From a virus (taxonomy: Duplodnaviria; Caudoviricetes), in the IMG/VR virus record IMGVR_UViG_3300020151_002519, positions 1 through 36,681 of that record: a stretch of DNA of 36,681 nucleotides; one strand, given 5' to 3'. Positions 12,362 through 35,868 of this stretch are shown here, one piece after another; within the stretch, counting starts at the first letter, position 1, and the number at the start of each line of letters is the position of its first letter. The notes below the pieces were generated by a model. That model was not told the origin of the DNA. It ran no database searches and was given only the letters and a program-made list of their open reading frames with translations. Position numbers and translations under genes: made by a program.

Positions 12362-13597
12362 TCACAAACCCACCCCAAACCACCCCTCCCCATCCTCCTT
12401 TCTCAACGGCCTCCGATAACTCCTGCGGATCTCACTCTCGCTATTCCCGCACCACTCCGCCACCTGCCCGCGACCATGCCCCTGCGCCAATCGATACGAG
12501 ATATACGAATGCCGCATCACATCCTGCGGCCACGAATCAATCAGCCCGCGCTTCCGCAGCAGCCGCGACACAAACACTTGGTCATCACTCCGCACGATGT
12601 GCCGCGCCTTCCGCCGACCCTGCCGCGCCCCCCAAAACAACTCCGACGCCGTCAGCCGCTCATAAAGCAGCCCCCGCACATTCGCCGGGATCGGCACAAA
12701 CCGCTGTTGCATCACCTTCTGCGCCACATCCGCGTCCACGCACAAGTAACCCCGCTCCCAATCAAACTTCCCCGGCACCACCCGCCCCATCTCAAACGGC
12801 CGCAGGCCCATCCAGCAGCCGACCACGAGGTAAGTCAGTGACTCATTCAGCTCCTCACGCACCACCGACAAAACACGCCGCGCCAGATCCACGCTCCAGA
12901 TCTCCGGCACCTTATCCACCCATCGCGCCGGCTTGATGAGCTCCGCCGCATGCCCCTCCTCACGCACCAGCATTCGCTGCTTCCGCGCCCAATTCATGAA
13001 CGTCTTCCAAGTCGCCAGCCGATTGTTGAAATACCGCCAGCCAGGCTCCCCGCCATCCTCATTTGCCCGAGCAATCCACGCCCGCAGCATCCCCTCATCC
13101 ACATCCGTGATCAGCACATCCCCACGGCCACCCGCATCCACAAACGCCCGCAGATCCTTCTGCATCCCCCGCTTGTAGAGCCCCACCTTGAAGCCTTGCA
13201 AAAACGACTCCACCGCCTCCTCCATCGTCGCCTGGATGAGCTGCCCATGCCCTGCGCGCAGGTAAGCCTCGCACGCCCGCACCACATGCGAAAAGCCGCC
13301 CACACGCGCCACCACATCCCGCAGTTGCTCAACCACCGCCGGCAGCGACCGCGCCCCCACGATCTCCTTCAGTCCCTCCACCGCCTGCGCCTCCAAAACC
13401 GTCACCACCCGCGAACCCGAAGCCCCCGCCAGCTCCCGCACCTTCGCCCGAGCAAACCGCCGCGCCCGTTCCAGCGACACCGCCGTCGTTGATCTCCCCT
13501 TCTTAGCCTCCCGCCAAGTAATCGCAAAAAACCCATTTGAGCGCGGTTTGATCCGCACCGAGGCCCCGCCATAGGAAACAATTTCGCCCGCATTCAT
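12362..13597 (-). CDS. int: Tyrosine recombinase (phage integrase)
   Basis: GLRPFE (R), MRHSYIS (H-x-x-R region variant), CGNS..IRRSY (catalytic Y); adjacent to attP. Confidence 0.9.
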   Translation of the reverse strand: MNAGEIVSYGGASVRIKPRSNGFFAITWREAKKGRSTTAVSLERARRFARAKVRELAGASGSRVVTVLEAQAVEGLKEIVGARSLPAVVEQLRDVVARVGGFSHVVRACEAYLRAGHGQLIQATMEEAVESFLQGFKVGLYKRGMQKDLRAFVDAGGRGDVLITDVDEGMLRAWIARANEDGGEPGWRYFNNRLATWKTFMNWARKQRMLVREEGHAAELIKPARWVDKVPEIWSVDLARRVLSVVREELNESLTYLVVGCWMGLRPFEMGRVVPGKFDWERGYLCVDADVAQKVMQQRFVPIPANVRGLLYERLTASELFWGARQGRRKARHIVRSDDQVFVSRLLRKRGLIDSWPQDVMRHSYISYRLAQGHGRGQVAEWCGNSESEIRRSYRRPLRKEDGEGWFGVGL

Positions 13598-15211: not shown

Positions 15212-15589
15212 TCACTGCGGCTGTTCGCCGCAGTCTGCGGCAGTTTGCGGCTCGATGCGGGCGACGTCGGAGGTGGTCAAATACTCGCGATGGGTGCCGA
15301 TGAGGGCGGCTTTGGCGGGATCGGCGGCGGCGTCGCCGGTGATGACGCTGGCGCTTTGTGTGGGCGCGGGGCCGGATCCGGGTTTGCTGAGGATGAGATT
15401 GAGGATGCCGACGACGACTCCGGCGATGATGAGCCAGTTGAGCTTGCTGAGCGTGGCGTCGATTTTTTCGAGCGTGGTTTCGGTCAGGTGCATGCGTGCG
15501 GAGAGTCCATCGCGACTGTCGTCACCGCCATAGACGGTGCGCTCAAGGCGAGCGATGCGGGTTTCGTGTTCTTCGGCGTCATGGCCCAT
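15212..15589 (-). CDS. Coiled-coil plus TM protein, holin/XhlA-like
   Basis: HETRIARLE coiled coil followed by WLIIAGVVVGILNLIL; first gene of the lysis block. Confidence 0.55.
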   Translation of the reverse strand: MGHDAEEHETRIARLERTVYGGDDSRDGLSARMHLTETTLEKIDATLSKLNWLIIAGVVVGILNLILSKPGSGPAPTQSASVITGDAAADPAKAALIGTHREYLTTSDVARIEPQTAADCGEQPQ

Positions 15590-21284: not shown

Positions 21285-21354
21285 TCACCCAGCGGCGGAG
21301 TCAAACACCTGCCTCCGGCGGAATGGCGAAACCAGAATGAGGAATGAGGAATGC

Positions 21355-21415
21355 GCCGAACCGGGACGCTGCGCCGAACTGAGCCTAGGCTCAGTCGGCG
21401 AGCTGGGTGTTCCTC
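21355..21415 (+). mobile_element. attC-like site A
   Basis: GCCGAAC..GCT(G)CGCCG(A)ACTGAGC..GCTCAGTCGGCGAGC..GTTCCTC: imperfect palindrome with AAC/GTT ends and two unpaired bases. Confidence 0.65.
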
Positions 21416-21420
21416 ATTCC

Positions 21421-21675
21421 TCATTCCGCCTCCGGCGGCGGCCACTCCAGATCGAGATCCAAAAGCGGCGGCGGGGCATCGAGGTCGATGCGGGGGCGGC
21501 CGTGGACTTTGTAGGTGTGCAGGCCGTTGCGGCGCATTTCGGCGTGGACAAAGCCGAGCGTTTGCCAGATCGGCCATTCCCATCCGACGGCGCGCGGGCT
21601 GTGCCCGTGGCGCACGCCATGCCAGATCAAGGCGACTCCGGGGTCTGGCTCGTCGGAGTCGTCTAGTCCAAAGGG
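21421..21675 (-). CDS. Tail assembly chaperone, frameshifted T segment (gpGT-like)
   Basis: The -1 frame opens at slippery CCCTTTG (21669-21675) and reads [14 protein letters not shown]. Confidence 0.7.
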
Positions 21676-21986: not shown

Positions 21987-22031
21987 GCGGGCGGAAATTG
22001 AAAAATTGAAAAATCGAAAATGGAGATTGGC

Positions 22032-22436
22032 TCAGCATTTGGTGATCAGTTTGTCTTCGAGTGCTTTGAGGCGCTGCTCGAGGCTGCGATCGGTTTCAGA
22101 GGGGCGGCGGGGGCGTTTGACGGCGGACTCGAAGGATTGCCAGCGCATGGCGATGCGGTCGCCTCCATCGAGGTGCCCAGCATCGTAGATGGCGGTGATC
22201 ACGTCATCGAGATCGTCGCCGGGCTCCACGTGGATGTGGATGTGCGGGAAATGCGTCTGACGGAGAAACGAGACGGTTTTGCTGTGATCGTCATGGCAGA
22301 TGGTGCCCGCTTCACGGAAGCCGCGATCGTGCAGGAATTCGACCACGCTGGGCTTGTAGCCGCGACTGACGAGTTCGCGGTGCTCCGCATCGGTCATGCG
22401 TTTTTCATCGGCGATGAGTTGTGAGAGTGCGGCCAT
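22032..22436 (-). CDS. Hypothetical protein
   Basis: ORF in the tail operon; start chosen at ATG 22436 to avoid overlap. Confidence 0.55.
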   Translation of the reverse strand: MAALSQLIADEKRMTDAEHRELVSRGYKPSVVEFLHDRGFREAGTICHDDHSKTVSFLRQTHFPHIHIHVEPGDDLDDVITAIYDAGHLDGGDRIAMRWQSFESAVKRPRRPSETDRSLEQRLKALEDKLITKC

Positions 22437-23271: not shown

Positions 23272-23358
23272 GGCGAGTAGTAAGGGTGGAGGGTGTGATG
23301 GGCGCGGGGTGTCAAACACTCGCGCCCTGCGCGGAATGACGAATGATGAATGACGAAT

Positions 23359-23417
23359 GGCGAACGTCCGCTGCGCCAAACTTCGCCAAGGCTCAGTTGG
23401 CGAGCTCTTTGTTCGTC
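23359..23417 (+). mobile_element. attC-like site B (59 bp)
   Basis: GGCGAAC..GCT(G)CGCCA(A)ACT..AGTTGGCGAGC..GTTCGTC; same family as sites A and C with a compensatory base-pair change. Confidence 0.6.
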
Positions 23418-23424
23418 ATTCCAG

Positions 23425-23874
23425 CTACACGCTGGCCCCTTGCGCGGTGATTTGCAGGCCGTGGAGGGTCTGGTGGGTGCCGTCATCGGCGGCGGACTCG
23501 AAGCGGAGGCCGGTGAACTGCACGTGGTAGCAGTGGAGGCCGTCAGCGGCGCTGAGGGCGGTCTGCACGGCGGCGAGATCGTGCAGCCAGCTGGTGAGCT
23601 TCGCGGCGGCGGTTTTGTGCGCGGCGATGGTGGTGTCGCGCTGGCTGTGATAAACGATTTCCACGGCGCAATCCATCACGCCAGGCAGATCGATGGTGCG
23701 CGGGCTCATGGCATCGCAGCTCACGACGATGCGCGGCGTCTGGAGCGTGACATCGTCAAAGCTGGCCACGATCTGCGTGGTGCCGAGCCCGGCATCGCTG
23801 CGCACACTGATGAGGTAGGCGGCGAGGGCGGACTCGAGCTTGTGATTGAGCGGGGTGTGGTCGGTGTCGGGCAT
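23425..23874 (-). CDS. Tail terminator/completion protein (putative)
   Basis: 149 aa; PRIVV motif; synteny. Confidence 0.6.
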   Translation of the reverse strand: MPDTDHTPLNHKLESALAAYLISVRSDAGLGTTQIVASFDDVTLQTPRIVVSCDAMSPRTIDLPGVMDCAVEIVYHSQRDTTIAAHKTAAAKLTSWLHDLAAVQTALSAADGLHCYHVQFTGLRFESAADDGTHQTLHGLQITAQGASV

Positions 23875-25826: not shown

Positions 25827-26429
25827 CTACGATGGAGATGTCAATTCCGGCGCGAGCGTGGTGCGCGCGTCGTGATGATAAAAATGCAGAACGTGCGGGA
25901 TGTGATGCGCCTGCGTGACGTGCATGCGCGCCTGCTTCACCCAAACCGCATCCTCGCCGTAATTCGTATCGAGGAATTGGCAGTGCGCGATGCGATCACG
26001 CCGCCACGCGCAGACGTGCCATGGGCCGCGGATGAGCTCTTGATCATCGGGACCGTCGATCTGCAGGTGCTGATCGGAGGCACCGTGCTGGAAGGTGACG
26101 TTGAAGGGCTTGCCATTGTAAGTGGCGCGCTGCTCGAAGGTGATGACGTGGGCCTCGGGGTGCTTCTCGATGGCCTTGAGCAGTGCGGGCACGTAGTTGG
26201 CACTCACGGCATCATCGTCATCGACGAAGGCGATGTATTGACCGCGCGCGGCATCGAGTAGCGCCTGACGTTTCAGGCCGACGCTGCGGTGGCGGTTGTC
26301 GTAGAGCACGAGGTGCTCCACGGCCCATGGCGGCGAGATCTGCGCGGCGATGTGCTGCACCAGGTCTTGGCATTGCTTGACGCGTTCCCAGCAGGCCGGG
26401 GTGAGGATGGAGAGGAGAGGTGGTTTCAT
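25827..26429 (-). CDS. GT2-family glycosyltransferase
   Basis: LSILTP, G.KRQALLDAARGQYIAFVDDDD, GED motifs. Confidence 0.9.
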   Translation of the reverse strand: MKPPLLSILTPACWERVKQCQDLVQHIAAQISPPWAVEHLVLYDNRHRSVGLKRQALLDAARGQYIAFVDDDDAVSANYVPALLKAIEKHPEAHVITFEQRATYNGKPFNVTFQHGASDQHLQIDGPDDQELIRGPWHVCAWRRDRIAHCQFLDTNYGEDAVWVKQARMHVTQAHHIPHVLHFYHHDARTTLAPELTSPS

Positions 26430-28126
26430 GCAGGTTTGCGGGGTGAGATGCCGGTGAGTTCTTCGAAGATGGCTGCGCCTTGTTGGTAGCGCTCGGTGCT
26501 GTTGTGGACGGCATACACTTCGTCCCAGCCTTTGCCTTCGTTGAAGAACGGATGATGGTGCTCGATGACGATGTGGGAGGCGTCGATGACGATGCCGTCG
26601 CGGTAGGCGATCCAGGAGTGGTAGTCGTCACTGAAGACGCTCTTGAAACGCGGATGGAGGAAGAATCCCTGCTGCGCGTAGCGGGCGCGGTTCATGACGG
26701 CGATGCAGAGCAGGTCATCGGTGCGGTGACCATCGGAGACGCGGAGGACGGCGGGTTTGCCAGGCTCCTCGGCGCAGGTGAAGGCTTCCTCGATCAGTTT
26801 ATCCCAGTGCATGGGCGGCTCGAAGTCGTCGTTGATCTGGACGAGGATCTCACCGCAGGAGGCGGCGGCGGCGAGGTTCCACGCGCCGACGCTGGCTCCT
26901 TCCTTGTTGGTTTGGATGACGTGGCGATAGACGCAGAGCGGGAGACTGTCGCCATCGTCGAAATCGATGGCGAAGAGGTGCTCCACGCGATCGGGATGCG
27001 CGGCGCGGTTCAGCCACTGGCGGCGGGCATCGGCGGCGAGCTTTGGACGGCCGCGCGTGGCATGCAGGAGGCTGATGACGGGATGCGGCTGGGCTTTGAG
27101 ATGATTGATCTCGCGCACATCGGCCTCGGGGAAGCGTCCATTGGCGCGGAGGGCCATGGCGTGGAGCTGGATGCCGAGCCAGCCGTAGTATTTGCCGCGG
27201 CGATTCCAGATGTATTCCGGCGGATCGCTGAGGCCGTGCATGGCCTCGGCATAGGCGAGGGCTCCGCGCGGATCGGCGAGGCGGAGCTTGGTGTTGACCA
27301 TCTCGCCATAGGCCTCGCGGCGGTAGGGGACGGCGTTGAGAGCTTGCAGGAGGTATTGCTCCTGCGCTTTGGGATTCGTGGCGACTTGCGCGATGTTGAT
27401 CATGAGCTCGTAGCCTTCCTCGGGGCCGATGTCCGGATGCTTGAGGGCTTGCTGCGCGATCTGCACGCCTTCTTCAATGCGTCCGACGAAACGGAGGCTT
27501 TGCCAGAGGTGGAAGAGGTGCGAGAGCGTGCGCTCGGCGGGCGGGATGCTTTCGAGGATGCGCAGGTTGCGTTCGTTGTTCGGCGTGCGGTCTTTGTGCG
27601 TGGCGTGGTGCCACTCCGGAGCGTCCTGGACGATCACGCGCGGCTTTTCCATGTTCACCTTGAAGCTCTCATGGATAGGCGAAACCCACGCGCCGGAATC
27701 GCGGCGCAGGATGCGCTCGCGCAGGACGCGGAGCTGATCCTCCGGCACGACGTAGGGCAGGGTGACGACGTCGGGGCGCTCCTCGGCTATGCGTTTGCGC
27801 AGCGCCTGCCATTGCTCCAGCGTGCCGCCATAGACATCGTCGGTGTCTGCCCAGGCAATGTAGTGGCCGGTGGCGAGCTTGAAGGCGAGATTGCGCGCGG
27901 CGGCGAAGTCATCGACGTGCGGCCAATCGTGCTCCGGTTTGTTGCGGTAGGACGCGCAGACGCAGCCACGCGCCTCGGCGATGTCGAGCGTGGCATCGGG
28001 CGTTTGGTTGCCGATGGCGCGCACGACGATGATCTCATCGAAGAGCGGCTGGAAGGAGTCGAGAAAGCGCGGCATCCAGTGCTCCACGTTTCCGGCGATG
28101 ATGGCGAGGCTGATTTTCATGGACAT
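26426..28126 (-). CDS. Glycosyltransferase GT2-TPR-GT2
   Basis: DFAAARN..WADTDD..IHE N-terminal GT2; central TPR-like helices (PYRREAY); second GT-A domain ISLLHATRGRP..INDDF. Confidence 0.88.
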   Translation of the reverse strand: MSMKISLAIIAGNVEHWMPRFLDSFQPLFDEIIVVRAIGNQTPDATLDIAEARGCVCASYRNKPEHDWPHVDDFAAARNLAFKLATGHYIAWADTDDVYGGTLEQWQALRKRIAEERPDVVTLPYVVPEDQLRVLRERILRRDSGAWVSPIHESFKVNMEKPRVIVQDAPEWHHATHKDRTPNNERNLRILESIPPAERTLSHLFHLWQSLRFVGRIEEGVQIAQQALKHPDIGPEEGYELMINIAQVATNPKAQEQYLLQALNAVPYRREAYGEMVNTKLRLADPRGALAYAEAMHGLSDPPEYIWNRRGKYYGWLGIQLHAMALRANGRFPEADVREINHLKAQPHPVISLLHATRGRPKLAADARRQWLNRAAHPDRVEHLFAIDFDDGDSLPLCVYRHVIQTNKEGASVGAWNLAAAASCGEILVQINDDFEPPMHWDKLIEEAFTCAEEPGKPAVLRVSDGHRTDDLLCIAVMNRARYAQQGFFLHPRFKSVFSDDYHSWIAYRDGIVIDASHIVIEHHHPFFNEGKGWDEVYAVHNSTERYQQGAAIFEELTGISPRKPA

Positions 28127-31125: not shown

Positions 31126-32727
31126 TTATTTGTCATCCATGGCGGCGAGGTCTTGCGCGAGGGTCTCGGGGCTGAGGGTGGTGAGGAGGCTGCTGGAGCT
31201 GCTGGTGCGCTGGCCGAGGGCGAGGACGGTGGCGATACTGGGGGGTATGCCGCGCTCTTTGGCTCGCTCGATGGCGTAGCTGATGAGGTGGAGCTTTTGA
31301 TCGATGGCGGCTTCGCGGGTGCGCTGGCCGTCGTTGCCGGTGAGGAGCTCGACGAGGTCGTTGGGACTGATGAGGTTTTCACCCATGCGCTCCATCTGCG
31401 CTTTGTGATCGCGGCCGGCATCAGCGGAGGGATCGGGATCGGTGACGAAGTCGATGACGTTCCAATCCTCGACGGCTGCGTATTGGAACAACGGGCCGCC
31501 GGGCAGCATGGCGGTGGCGATGACTTTTTCCCAGATCCATTGGATGAGCGGATAAAGTTTCTGGCGGAGGCCTTCGTGGGCTCGCTTCACCTGCTCGAGC
31601 AGGCCGCGGTATTCGGTGCCGCCGACTTTGCCGCGCATGAAGATCCACTCTGGCGGGTAGCCGAATTCGAAGATGAAGGGGTGCAGCAGGTCTTCGAGTA
31701 TCTGCTTGAAGGGCACGCCTTCGTTGGGGTTGTTGAAAAAATTGAACTGCTCGCTGTCGGAGAGGGGGATGAAAACGGCTCCTTCGCCGAGTTCGACGAA
31801 ACGGCGGCCGGTGTCGGCGGCTGGGGTGCCGGATTGCTCGGCGGTGAGCACCTGCTGCATGGCGTTGAGCACTTTACCGTCTTTGGTGACGGTGGCTCCG
31901 AGGAGGGCGGCGCGGACTTTGGCGCTGTGTTTGCGCAAGGCTTTCAGATCGAGCACGTCGAGCAGGTCTTTGCCAGCGGCGAAGATGGCGGGGTCGCCGT
32001 GGTATTGATTGATGCGGCCGCTGTCTTTGAGGTGGAAGACGGCTGGGTAGCCTTTGGCGTCGATGGCGGGCAGGTCGCGGTATTTGCTGGCGGTGCCGAG
32101 TGCGGTGAGGCCGTCGTCGATGTTGAGGCGCAGCTTGATGAGCTGGTCGAGGCCATTGTAGAAAAGGCCGTCGATGCAGCGCGCGGTGCGTGCATCGGTA
32201 ACGTCGCCATTGGTGAGCTGGTCGCGCGTGATGTTTTGCAGCTGGAAGGCGCGCTTGGATTTGTCGTTGAGGCTCCAGCCGAGGCCCATGGGCTCGAAGA
32301 TGGGCAGCACAAACACCTCGCCATCGCCGAGCATGCCGGAGAGCCAGGTGCTCTGAAGCTGGAAGAAGGTCTGCTGCTTGCGGATGTCCACGGCGGGCGA
32401 GTCGGCCCATTTGAGGAAGAGCGCGGTGGCATCGCGGGCGAAGTCGGCATTCGTGCTGATGCTTTTCGCTCCGATGCCTTTGCCGACGGCCTCGCGCGGG
32501 AGCTGGCGGCACGCGTAGCGCACCTGCGGGATGCCGTTCTCGCTTTGCAGGAAGCGACTGATTTGCACGATGTCCTTGGATCGCTGAATGCGCTCGAGCG
32601 ATTTGTTGCTCCACGGCTGCCAGGTGGGCATGCTGCGATATCCACCGGAGGATGCTGGGAGCGCCGCGTTGGTGATCGGTGCGGCGGGCGCGGTGGCGCT
32701 GGGGGATTTTTTGCGACGGGAACTCAT
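31126..32727 (-). CDS. Portal protein, lambda family
   Basis: 533 aa; AVGKGI, DGEVF and QYHGDP motifs; follows the gpW-like gene. Confidence 0.85.
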   Translation of the reverse strand: MSSRRKKSPSATAPAAPITNAALPASSGGYRSMPTWQPWSNKSLERIQRSKDIVQISRFLQSENGIPQVRYACRQLPREAVGKGIGAKSISTNADFARDATALFLKWADSPAVDIRKQQTFFQLQSTWLSGMLGDGEVFVLPIFEPMGLGWSLNDKSKRAFQLQNITRDQLTNGDVTDARTARCIDGLFYNGLDQLIKLRLNIDDGLTALGTASKYRDLPAIDAKGYPAVFHLKDSGRINQYHGDPAIFAAGKDLLDVLDLKALRKHSAKVRAALLGATVTKDGKVLNAMQQVLTAEQSGTPAADTGRRFVELGEGAVFIPLSDSEQFNFFNNPNEGVPFKQILEDLLHPFIFEFGYPPEWIFMRGKVGGTEYRGLLEQVKRAHEGLRQKLYPLIQWIWEKVIATAMLPGGPLFQYAAVEDWNVIDFVTDPDPSADAGRDHKAQMERMGENLISPNDLVELLTGNDGQRTREAAIDQKLHLISYAIERAKERGIPPSIATVLALGQRTSSSSSLLTTLSPETLAQDLAAMDDK

Positions 32728-32729
32728 GA

Positions 32730-33074
32730 TCAGATGCGGTCGAGAACTTCAGCGGGGGCGCAGCCGGAGCCGAAACGGATGCCGAAGGGACGGGAGAGGG
32801 ACTTGGCGACATCGCCGGCGATTTCGCTTTCGACTTCCTCGATGGCGCGTTGCAGGGCCATGCGGCGCTGATCGGGCGAGGAGTCCCGGAACTGCGCGGA
32901 ATGCGAGGAGCCAGCGAAGGAGGTGGCGGTGATCTCCGCGCCGCTGCGGTCCTCGGCGAGGAGCAGGTATTGCTCGGTGAGCCATTTGAGCTGCTCACTT
33001 TGATCGCCGGGGTGCAGAATCCGCGCGTGGAATCGGTAGTCGGATGTCAGGTCTGCGATATTGACGGCGGGCAT
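32730..33074 (-). CDS. Head completion protein (gpW position)
   Basis: 114 aa between terminase and portal; SFAGSSHSAQF then a helix. Confidence 0.55.
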   Translation of the reverse strand: MPAVNIADLTSDYRFHARILHPGDQSEQLKWLTEQYLLLAEDRSGAEITATSFAGSSHSAQFRDSSPDQRRMALQRAIEEVESEIAGDVAKSLSRPFGIRFGSGCAPAEVLDRI

Positions 33075-33100
33075 GACGGCGCGGTCATGTCAAAAAACGC

Positions 33101-33159
33101 GGCGAACGTGCGCTGCGCCGAACTGAGCTAGGGCTCAGTCGGCGAGCTGGGTGTTCGTC
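33101..33159 (+). mobile_element. attC-like site C (59 bp)
   Basis: R'' GGCGAAC, L'' GCT(G)CGCCG(A)ACTGAGC, L' GCTCAGTCGGCGAGC, R' GTTCGTC. Confidence 0.8.
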
Positions 33160-33713
33160 TTATGAAATGCCACCCAGTGAGTCTGCGCTTTCTTGCCGCT
33201 CCGGTGGCCGTAGAGAGGGCGTTCTGGCGTGAGCGCCAGCACTTCGCGGAGCGGGATTTCCGCCTCGCACCATTTGAAGATCATCGTTCCATTCACCTTC
33301 AGGACACGGAAGCATTCAGCGAATCCCGCCCGCAGGTCGTCGCGCCATGTCGCATCCAGCAGTCCGAAATCGAAGGCGATGCGTCCCGTTGCCCCCGCTC
33401 CTTTGTGGAAGTGCGGCGGATCGAATACCACATGCCAGAACGTCTCGTCAGGGAACGGCATGTTTCGGAAATCCGCCACCATGTCAGGCGCAACGGTTTT
33501 CGGCGTGCGTCCGATTGTGCCGGGAGTTCCAACGTCTATGATTCGCGTCCCCTCCCGCTTGTCCACATAGAGGGCGCGGGCGTCCTGCTTATCGAACCAG
33601 AACATGCGAGTAGAGCAGCACGCATCCAAGACCGGAGGCAAAGACGAACAAGGCGCTGCATGGAACGCCGAGGAGCGTCCTTCTTGAAGCGGAGATTTAG
33701 GGTCGGCGTCCAT
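33135..33713 (-). CDS. Class I SAM-dependent (probable DNA adenine) methyltransferase, cassette 1
   Basis: LDACC..RMFWFDK, VVFDPPH, ECFRVLK..G..IFKW. Confidence 0.85.
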   Translation of the reverse strand: MDADPKSPLQEGRSSAFHAAPCSSLPPVLDACCSTRMFWFDKQDARALYVDKREGTRIIDVGTPGTIGRTPKTVAPDMVADFRNMPFPDETFWHVVFDPPHFHKGAGATGRIAFDFGLLDATWRDDLRAGFAECFRVLKVNGTMIFKWCEAEIPLREVLALTPERPLYGHRSGKKAQTHWVAFHKTNTQLAD

Positions 33714-33729
33714 GAGCTATGCGTTCCCC
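33643..33729 (+). mobile_element. attC-like site D (87 bp)
   Basis: GACGAAC-AAGGC-GCT(G)CATGG(A)ACGCCGA..TCGGCGTCCATGAGC-TATGC-GTTCCCC. Confidence 0.85.
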
Positions 33730-33992
33730 TTTGTGAATTTGAAGCCATCGATGAACAGCATGAGGAAACCAGCCTTGGCGTCGAAGTCGTCTCTCTGCTT
33801 TTGGTTCCACTGTGCTCGCGGCCCATACCAGCCTTCGTGGTATTCGATGAGCCATGAAACCATCGCAGACATTTTATCGGCCCTCGAAGGAGAACACGGC
33901 ACGGCAGCTAACCCCATAGGGCCATCTGTCGCAGGTCGAGAGTCTGCCGCTTCGGCGGCGGGTGCTGGTAGTGGTGAGTCCATCGTGGTCAT
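33717..33992 (-). CDS. Hypothetical protein, cassette 2
   Basis: 91 aa; N-terminal third encoded by attC-E. Confidence 0.55.
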   Translation of the reverse strand: MTTMDSPLPAPAAEAADSRPATDGPMGLAAVPCSPSRADKMSAMVSWLIEYHEGWYGPRAQWNQKQRDDFDAKAGFLMLFIDGFKFTKGNA

Positions 33993-34025
33993 GCCCTATG
34001 GGGTTGCTGCGTTTGGTCGTTCGCC
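33889..34025 (+). mobile_element. attC-like site E (137 bp)
   Basis: GGAGAAC-ACGGC-ACG(G)CAGC(T)AACCCCATAGGGC..GCCCTATGGGGTTGCTGCGT-TTGGTC-GTTCGCC. Confidence 0.85.
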
Positions 34026-34026
34026 G

Positions 34027-35868
34027 TCAAAACTTTACGATGCCGCCGGCGCGGAGGATTTGTGAGTGGAGGAGGGCGAGTTTGCCGCAGTCGCCTTGGT
34101 GGTCGTTGAGGATTTCTTTCCATCGGCCGGTTTGGCGGTCTTTGGTTTGATTGGTGAAGCCGGTCAAAAGATGTGAATCGGCATCGGTGGGGAAGATGAT
34201 GCGCGGTCCGCGCCGGCGCTGGATGCGGCGGCCATACATTTCGTCTTTGAGCTCGGTGTCGGAGTAGGTGTAGAGCTCGAGCTCGGAGCGGTTGCGCGAG
34301 GCGGCGCGGGTGACATTCCAGCCGCGTTTCGCGGTGGGGTCGCCTTTGGATGGCCAGAGGAAACCTCGCGACGCTTGGCAAATGTCGTAGATCTCCTCGG
34401 TGTTCCAGCCGGAATCGACGATGCCAGAGATGGGCACCATGGTGTCCATGGTGCCGGCGAGCGGGAAGCGGAGGGATCGGAGGAAGTCGGGATCGAGTAA
34501 GGCTTTTTCACTGGCGAGGCGGCCCCACTGGATGGCCATGAGATCGCCGTTTGGCATGAGTGCCCACACGGCCCAGTCGGTGGCGCGTTCGCCGGGGTCG
34601 GCGTAGAGGCCGAGGTGCAAGGGGCGCGTGGGGATGACGCCGCGGGCGTATTTGTCGGTGCCGCTGCCTTCGGCTCCGGCGATGCAGTCGTTGACGTGTT
34701 TGTCGCCGATCTTGAAGGCGTAGATGGACCAGGGCAGGGCGAGCCAGGAGTTGTAGAAGTTTTGCAGGCCGGTGGTGAGGAGGTCGCCTTTTTCGAGGAA
34801 CTCCTTGGCCATGTCGCCAAAGCTGACTTTGGGCGCGTAGAAGGACGGGATGCGGAAGCTGCGGTCGCTGAGGAGCGCGTTCGGATTGTGGTGGACGGCT
34901 TGCAGTTTGGAGAGCATGCCGGGCTTGTCGTCGTCGTGGATCTCGCACCCGTTCTTTGGGCAGATGTAGCGGATGGTTTCGCGGACGCGTGGGATGTCCC
35001 ATGAGCCATCGGCGCGGCGGGCATCGGGGCTCCAGACGAGGGAACGGTAGTGCTCGGAAACGGCGCGCTCCTGCTCTTCCTCGAGCGTGGTTTCCATCTC
35101 GTCCTCGGGAACGGTTTCGCCGTTTTTGCGGATCTCGAACTCAAACGGGAAGAAGTGCCCGCAGTGAGGGCAGGGGACGTGGAAGTGGGTCTGCGTGCCG
35201 CGCAGGTAGGTGAGCCACGCGAGGTGATTGGGCGTGTTCGGCGTGAAATCCATCATCTGCAGCTCGAGGCCGCGGAATTCCTTGGTGCGCTCGAAGGCGA
35301 GCTTGATGGGGTGCGCTTCGGGTGCCTGGTCGCGCTCGTGGTGGACGATCTTGGCGGCTTCGCAGATGTAAACGATGCGCTGGGTGCTGCCGCTGGTGGA
35401 GGTGTCGGAATTGATGCCCTCGAAGACGATGAATCCGCCGCTCATCTGCATGGCGAGTTTGCGGAAGTTGTGCGCGTCGAAGGGCTTGTGGATGCGCAGG
35501 CAGTGGTTTGCCTCGATGAGCGCGGCAAGTCGCTTGTCGCTGATTTCGACGCGGAGCCAGTCTTCGGAGTTGCCGAGGATCAGCGTGGGGCCGGGGGCGT
35601 GCGGAATGCGGTAGGCCAGAATGAGGATGCAGCAGGTCGTTTTGCCGGTCTGCGAGCCGCCGGTGACGGTGAGGGAGCGGACGCCGCTCTGAGGATGCCC
35701 ACACGCCAAAATTTCGCGCATATACGGGCGGCGCTCGGTGCTGAATGGTCCCGGCGAGGCGGGAGCCATCGCGGCGGGCAGGACGAGATTCGACTCGGCC
35801 CAGTCCACGACGGGCGGATCGGTGGTGAATTGGAAATCCCCGCGGACGATGTCGGCGATCAGGCTCAT
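34027..35868 (-). CDS. terL: Terminase large subunit, lambda gpA family
   Basis: PGPFSTERRPYMREI, GSQTGKT Walker A, HVPCPHCG, LQNFYNSWLALPW, VDSG; ATGA overlap with terS. Confidence 0.93.
   Translation of the reverse strand: MSLIADIVRGDFQFTTDPPVVDWAESNLVLPAAMAPASPGPFSTERRPYMREILACGHPQSGVRSLTVTGGSQTGKTTCCILILAYRIPHAPGPTLILGNSEDWLRVEISDKRLAALIEANHCLRIHKPFDAHNFRKLAMQMSGGFIVFEGINSDTSTSGSTQRIVYICEAAKIVHHERDQAPEAHPIKLAFERTKEFRGLELQMMDFTPNTPNHLAWLTYLRGTQTHFHVPCPHCGHFFPFEFEIRKNGETVPEDEMETTLEEEQERAVSEHYRSLVWSPDARRADGSWDIPRVRETIRYICPKNGCEIHDDDKPGMLSKLQAVHHNPNALLSDRSFRIPSFYAPKVSFGDMAKEFLEKGDLLTTGLQNFYNSWLALPWSIYAFKIGDKHVNDCIAGAEGSGTDKYARGVIPTRPLHLGLYADPGERATDWAVWALMPNGDLMAIQWGRLASEKALLDPDFLRSLRFPLAGTMDTMVPISGIVDSGWNTEEIYDICQASRGFLWPSKGDPTAKRGWNVTRAASRNRSELELYTYSDTELKDEMYGRRIQRRRGPRIIFPTDADSHLLTGFTNQTKDRQTGRWKEILNDHQGDCGKLALLHSQILRAGGIVKF

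Follow-up and report, generated by a model that had tools for sequence, protein, structure and literature searches.

The 36.7-kb window, i.e., the whole stretch of DNA analysed here, comprises one whole virus record in which profile searches recognize genes for the terminase large subunit (terL), a lambda-type portal, a protease, a capsid protein, a tape measure protein, an endolysin, ParB and a tyrosine recombinase, and nearly all genes of the window lie on the - strand. Between terL and the next late gene, three imperfect palindromes (C, D and E) alternate with two open reading frames, and of two further palindromes, A lies before the tape-measure gene and B in the tail region (Table 1). CheckV describes the record as linear and 64% complete, yet its length equals that of complete relatives lacking the integron integrase IntI. 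Among the bacterial genomes searched, terL had a single relative, 69% identical, located on a 37-kb contig that binning had placed with a Prosthecobacter metagenome-assembled genome (MAG); the phage host therefore likely belongs to the Verrucomicrobiaceae, as judged from the binning of this one contig. The name "gpW position" for the conserved 114-aa gene is positional only; gpW as its product gained no support, as none of 10 homologues matched a named PHROG and no PDB match was obtained below E 0.04. Elsewhere in the record, two glycosyltransferase genes (25827-28126, - strand) follow the capsid gene and possibly serve capsid or DNA modification, and a small ORF near the endolysin gene (15212-15589, - strand) carries the PHROG label hemolysin (E 4.9e-07), while by position it is probably a holin.

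Table 1. Genes, attC-type sites, cassettes and motifs of the window (strand of attC-type sites and cassettes: top strand).
Feature	Position	Strand	Remarks
Phage tyrosine recombinase	12362..13597	-	411 aa; weak XerC/phrog_216 matches
attC-type site A (putative landing pad)	21355..21415	+	before tape-measure gene; empty in the window
attC-type resident site B	23359..23417	+	tail region
Conserved gene, terL-to-portal interval	32730..33074	-	114 aa; "gpW position"
TTTGACA leader motif	33088..33094	-	about 13 nt ahead of the ATG that starts the following late gene
TTTGAC(A/T) motifs	33094, 30292, 25739, 25359, 21305, 18006, 15609, 15174	-	before late genes
attC-type resident site C (putative landing pad)	33101..33159	+	59 nt including R boxes; spacers 4/5; crossover G33153^T33154
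DNA methyltransferase ORF	33135..33713	-	192 aa; phrog_954, E 2.9e-60
Cassette 1	33154..33723	+	570 bp; includes attC D
attC D, cassette-borne	33643..33729	+	spacers 5/5; crossover G33723^T33724
91-aa ORF	33717..33992	-	attC E makes up the first ~35 codons
Cassette 2	33724..34019	+	296 bp; includes attC E
attC E, cassette-borne	33889..34025	+	spacers 5/6; crossover G34019^T34020
Terminase large subunit (terL)	34027..35868	-	phrog_15, E 1.9e-63; flank upstream of the array

The Palindromes Are attC-Type Sites

An earlier note on this DNA had ascribed attC architecture to palindromes C, D and E, and covariance model, folding and architecture scan bear this out: all three are attC-type sites. They possess AAC...GTT R''/R' boxes with a crossover at G^TT, pairing L''/L' boxes, an extrahelical fourth base and a second bulge, site C reading AAC-4nt-GCT[G]CGCC...GGCGAGC-5nt-GTT on the top strand, and their lengths (C 59, D 87, E 137) all fall inside the attC range of 57-141 bp. 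With DNA folding parameters, the bottom strands form hairpins of -19.1 (C), -16.9 (D) and -31.5 kcal/mol (E) with the bulges where they are expected. By a strict architecture scan the window contains five sites, the top strand being + in each, and 30 simulated control sequences matched in dinucleotide make-up contained none. The covariance model was built from 10 attCs adjoining intI genes in bacterial genomes, in which 11 of 19 pairs show strong covariation, and it contained no sequence of the window's phage family; it recovered D (45.5 bits), E (44.8 bits) and C (35.0 bits) with exactly the borders that the earlier note had drawn, and additionally A (25.5 bits) and B (24.0 bits). Beyond these five sites it gave the reverse strand of B (19.1 bits) and then a next match at E 1.7, E-values being rough, and an Rfam search over 32500-34600 returned no match up to E 5.

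The permutation of R boxes proposed before, as integration at G^TT would leave it, holds for two of three junctions: the left R box of D matches the right one of C at 9/9 positions vs 7/9 in place, and the left box of C matches the right one of E at 8/8 vs 6/8 in place. The third match, E-left with D-right at 8/10, carries no weight alone because E pairs equally well in place (8/10). The GAAC/GTTC cores, formerly regarded as unusual, turned out to be ordinary, since the consensus of the 10 bacterial attCs has the same cores, which are therefore the norm of the host family's integrons. Similarly, the first bulge is a C on the bottom strand and not the usual G, as it is in most sites of the host family. 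Compared with the usual central spacers of 5-6 nt per arm, D and E conform, C and B have 4/5 and A has 6/5.

In the terms of Cury et al. 2016 (PMC4889954), where the accessible text defines the CALIN, the array with its at least two attC sites and no neighbouring intI is of this kind. It is not a complete integron, as no intI gene adjoins it and its head is formed by a full hairpin which scores as attC in place of an attI.

Cassettes With Genes Antisense to the attC Top Strand

The mobile units run from the TT of one crossover to the G of the next, as integron cassettes do, but their ORFs lie on the bottom strand and start in their own attC rather than on the top strand upstream of it, an orientation which the earlier note overlooked along with A and B as further candidate landing pads. 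The methyltransferase ORF has its ATG within attC D and its stop within resident site C, and the 91-aa ORF stops within attC D, three bases ahead of the methylase ATG. In nine of 12 arrays, the reading frame of the gene adjoining the resident site runs across the crossover, AAC being in frame, and its stop codon lies within the resident site. The genes of the host arrays L190-L192 are on the top strand. Judged by analogy, the methyltransferase would likely shield the phage's DNA against restriction by the host; its SAM-binding loop reads CCSTRM vs CCGTRM in the homologue L045, and its DPPH motif is intact. Profile searches with the 91-aa ORF gave no family match, and a top-strand ORF at 33162-33857, matching no PHROG, was taken as a shadow frame. 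Some cassettes of the relatives L006, L010 and L019 contain two or three genes and an AT-rich promoter-like stretch, resembling early-gene modules of phages.

Empty, Filled and Site-Less Alleles of the Junction After terL

Searches with terL yielded 35 loci (22 from viruses, 12 from metagenomes and 1 from a genome), of which 32 span the junction; L012, L127 and L131 fall short of it. These 32 loci comprise 20 distinct junction alleles: 11 filled with other cassettes, 3 with an empty site and 6 without a site. Among the empty alleles, that of the L002 group is intact, that of the L008 group is decayed, and L129 holds a different hairpin recognized by eye. By their contig names, L003 (empty site) and L043 (methylase cassette) bear the same dataset number, as do L002 (empty site) and L183 (an IntI-bearing phage).

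In relatives with 99% identical terL (L002/L003/L123), site C is present alone and the empty allele reads ...GAGCTGGGTG^TTCGCCGTCAAAA; this is exactly the sequence obtained by fusing the window's left flank, ending at G33153, to its right flank, beginning at T34020. Correspondingly, attC E now terminates in the original R' of the resident site (GTTCGCC). In each of the 11 filled alleles, the insert is bounded by the G^TT of the resident site at its start and by the resident R' at its end, and a model-detected attC abuts terL in 10 of them, the exception being L018, in which the model detects no distal attC. The proposal that two cassettes had been inserted into a resident attC after terL thereby gained from related phages an exact empty allele as well as alleles with other fillings that break at G^TT, and the main inferences of the earlier note appear supported at the level of sequence.

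The order of cassettes within arrays was informative as well. In the two-cassette alleles L006, L007 and L010, the distal cassette is the single cassette of the one-cassette allele L005, while the cassette adjoining the resident site differs from one allele to another. These three alleles suggest that new cassettes enter next to the resident site, although the polarity could instead stem from excisions of a longer array. In the terL tree, from which L124 was excluded for a frame break, the close clade is unresolved, and gain and loss of the resident site can therefore not be ordered. In L013 and L023, relatives without attC, an extra gene is nevertheless found at the junction, and the spot therefore tolerates insertions by other routes.

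The base-exact breakpoints bear directly on the reading that the sites are passive relics, i.e., bacterial integron fragments that were acquired a single time, through illegitimate or homologous recombination, and afterwards exchanged among phages on the basis of homology, no site-specific step taking place in the phage. Such capture is suggested for phage CALINs in the accessible text of Qi et al. 2023 (PMC9892861), and common attC families would provide short homologies for it. Against it, eleven fillings and the exact empty allele break at one and the same G^TT, where the homology between partners amounts to 3-4 nt; the cassette genes are antisense, unlike those of host arrays; and, save for attC E and a 68% methylase homologue, the cassettes were not found in 145 host-family genomes. 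We regard this reading as largely refuted on the breakpoints and assign it a very small residual probability.

Resident Sites as a Class and Their Operon Context

The resident sites span 51-53 nt from AAC to GTT and are distinguished by a 4-nt R''-L'' spacer, found in 11 of 14 head sites vs 1 of 35 others, although the heads are kin by descent and represent perhaps four independent families. All 14 sites have retained the left-arm AAC and the positions of the bulges. Five of 19 stem pairs are changed on both sides among the 14 sites, a number reached by 50 of 500 shuffles, and covariation counted in cells amounts to 23 vs 7.4 in shuffled stems, above all shuffles, with a control that ignores relatedness. 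Their consensus occurred in none of 145 host genomes, searched with a narrow exact pattern in incomplete assemblies.

A and B extend the class to other operon joints. Site A contains a cassette of ~880 bp with breakpoints at G^TT in G124 and L040, so that occupancy is reciprocal between two relatives: in the window A is empty and C filled, and in G124 A is filled and C empty. In 3 viral relatives and 4 sequencing runs, site B was either empty or missing and in no case filled. Short tandem repeats (GAATGAG/GAATGAC, AAAATTG) flank A and B (21320-21430, 23330-23425, 21995-22035) and lengthen the palindrome past the R boxes.

On the mRNA strand, A, B and C are each located upstream of a TTTGAC motif, that of B having been read by eye. 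The motif TTTGAC(A/T), followed after 9-14 nt by a start codon, occurs eight times on the - strand and not at all on the + strand, and it is likely a late promoter or a translation signal. At site C, the GTCAAAA of the leader motif is repeated at 34026-34032, where it contains the terL stop codon, whereas the site-less alleles L009/L133 possess a single GTCAAAA copy serving as terL stop and leader motif of the next gene at once; the repeat bracketing the resident element suggests either a gain accompanied by duplication or a loss by slippage.

The resident sites deviate from the published attC norm, which in the accessible text of PMC5027507 is a spacer of 5-6 nt, usually G as first bulge and a bulge spacing of 6 bp for IntI1: their bulges are 5 bp apart and the first one is a bottom-strand C. 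With these spacers and bulges they may therefore work as double-stranded targets instead. Insertion would then still be of the IntI type, the resident site acting as an attI/attG-like target (of which only L'-spacer-GTT is read), while its hairpin would be kept for a role in RNA, namely termination, processing or supply of a stop codon. The unusual length of the left spacer (4 or 6 nt), the growth of arrays beside the resident site as at attI, the T run following hairpin C on the mRNA strand and the insertion by IntI at double-stranded GWT sites, as described in the available part of bioRxiv 2022.09.11.507474, are all in line with such a target, and the stem covariation would fit an RNA role as well. 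Nonetheless, the left-arm AAC is kept in 14/14 sites, the bulges stand at attC positions and the resident sites score on the attC model, all of which speaks for a folded attC; an intrinsic terminator at site C was rejected since the terminator scan on the mRNA strand made no call there, and no T run adjoins hairpins A and B. We consider the double-stranded target unlikely, and the accompanying RNA role equally so.

Cassettes Shared by Unrelated Phages and the Source of the Integrase

Both cassettes of the window travel with their borders. Cassette 1 is found in L043 with the same borders (91% over 33153-33729) and in L044/G122 with the same 5' border and a different attC loop, and a contig of run X4 shares its 5' border as well. 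L044 and L207 belong to a 92-kb viral record (G122:C1:47000-54500), in which AT-rich forward cassettes are mixed with the backwards methylase cassette of the window. Cassette 2 recurs with the same borders (93%) in L165/G151, a phage whose terL and portal show no resemblance to those of the window; there it immediately follows another short hairpin, which is itself preceded by GTCAA. A contig of run X2 matches 33723-34023, i.e., cassette 2, and altogether the matches in public runs, which were covered as contigs, end at 33153, 33723 and 34018-34023; one such contig joins 33155 to 34017, its short side being just 31 letters. Members of the attC E family moreover stand at the head of other ORFs, namely in L166, L167 and the G036:C15 integron. 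Among the 145 host-family genomes, the window's cassettes had counterparts in two, both partial (attC E and the 68% methylase homologue).

Neither the window nor 3 complete relatives contain an IntI, nor do the cassette-sharing phages G122, G123, G151 and G155, in agreement with the earlier statement that no IntI is recognizable in the phage. The encoded tyrosine recombinase is not an IntI either, as the IntI-specific insertion that six IntIs possess is missing from it and the profile TIGR02249 does not match it. It is encoded in cis and in a block common to the close relative G124, and could on these grounds be thought to mobilize the cassettes itself; besides the missing insertion and profile match, the identical cassettes in phages unrelated by terL or portal, and beside true IntIs, make this highly improbable.

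Search of the likely host family for intI and for similar attC sites gave an IntI above the cut-off in 46 of 121 genomes, a count which takes in prophage-like copies, and the attC of one family cassette is 77-80% identical to host attCs and 83% to one of the phage G152. Two IntI clades occur in phage contexts. The first consists of G001:C62 and four viral contigs; this divergent clade (L035, at G001:C62:173-1141, and L182-L185) has the IntI insertion, lies among head genes and is accompanied by an attI-like site and antisense cassettes. The second comprises G036:C15, G152 and, by score and a shared attI-like motif, G154, the phage-borne IntIs of G152 and G154 being above the cut-off. The IntI of G152 (L195, L196, L200, L203), a complete phage of 39 kb, scores 352 bits, and the attI-like motif occurs three times in this phage, with attC sites after each copy. 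The integron of G036:C15 carries antisense cassettes, one of them with attC E at 89%, and on the run-X2 contig cassette 2 stands directly behind the attI-like motif of the G036/G152 clade, with one 26-nt loose end.

The supposition that the phage borrows a host integrase is thereby modified: an IntI acting in trans fits, but it need not come from the host chromosome, as IntI-carrying phages of the same host group share the cassette pool. We rate a host chromosomal IntI as a little below an even chance and a phage- or prophage-borne IntI as a substantial possibility too, and see a minor chance for other sources. Coupling to the SOS response was dropped, as a Verrucomicrobia LexA box preceded 1 of 36 intI genes vs 1 of 36 controls and did not occur in the window.

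Proposed Mechanism

Structure and footprints lead us to infer attC x attC chemistry at the landing pad, and we hold it to be probable that the short resident attC hairpins C, A and B take up cassettes by attC x attC recombination with an IntI acting in trans, whose source would be the host chromosome or a co-resident IntI-bearing phage. A cassette circle and the resident site would recombine through their folded bottom strands, probably when phage DNA becomes single-stranded in the course of its replication (accessible part of the review PMC8946536). As far as the available portions of PMC5027507 and bioRxiv 2020.11.24.395434 go, attC x attC insertion between molecules is established as a reaction of IntI. 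The resident R' would be shifted to the far end of the array with newcomers mostly entering beside the resident site. Cassette genes often begin inside their own attC and end inside the next. Since they lie on the bottom strand, they are likely transcribed together with the late operon, and because the pad is located upstream of the TTTGAC-ATG leader of the next gene, insertions would leave the packaging genes expressed.

More tentatively, and with somewhat less confidence than doubt, Verrucomicrobia phages may run a shared, phage-adapted cassette system with 4-nt-spacer resident attCs as attI substitute, backwards cassettes and IntIs of helper phages. If this were true, these resident attCs would form a class of their own, placed at several joints of the operon, each ahead of a late-gene leader, and would be fed from a pool which the IntIs move between unrelated phages.

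Comparison With Known Systems

Phage mosaicism is usually attributed to homologous or illegitimate recombination. The base-exact alleles described here indicate site-specific, repeatable gene capture within an essential late operon of a phage with no integrase of its own for this purpose, and they make several questions testable, namely the activity of integrase-less attC clusters, the replacement of attI by attC and the trade of anti-restriction genes via integron machinery. What is new is the direct evidence from empty, filled and absent alleles for an attC as a dedicated landing pad; a literature search, with most subscription journals outside its reach, found no paper on empty or filled attC landing pads in phages.

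Phage attC arrays as such are already published: the accessible text of Qi et al. 2023 (PMC9892861) describes 17 phage CALINs and recognition by IntI1, with accidental capture suggested, and SALINs are treated in the available part of bioRxiv 2022.09.11.507474. As far as these texts go, the window shares with phage CALINs and SALINs attCs of the same orientation, a replicon lacking intI, methyltransferase cargo and cassettes amid phage genes. It differs from phage CALINs in a resident attC which is empty in some strains and holds many different cassettes in others, in sites at three operon joints and in cassette genes facing the opposite way, and the accessible text of Qi et al. reports neither empty-vs-filled alleles nor a Verrucomicrobia phage. 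With the sedentary chromosomal integrons of Verrucomicrobiaceae it has in common the GAAC/GTTC cores and the GCTG..GAGC L boxes, in addition to the resemblance of one phage cassette's attC to host ones given above (77-80%), whereas in the phage the site stands without intI or attI, a short attC heads the array, bottom-strand ORFs overlap the attCs and transcription is apparently late and not from Pc. Finally, the transfer of R' at G^TT is the same footprint that intermolecular attC x attC insertion by IntI leaves (PMC5027507; bioRxiv 2020.11.24.395434); there, in the portions of these sources available, it is a laboratory reaction of integron arrays, while here it is apparently a standing entry route at a site which the phage keeps for the purpose.
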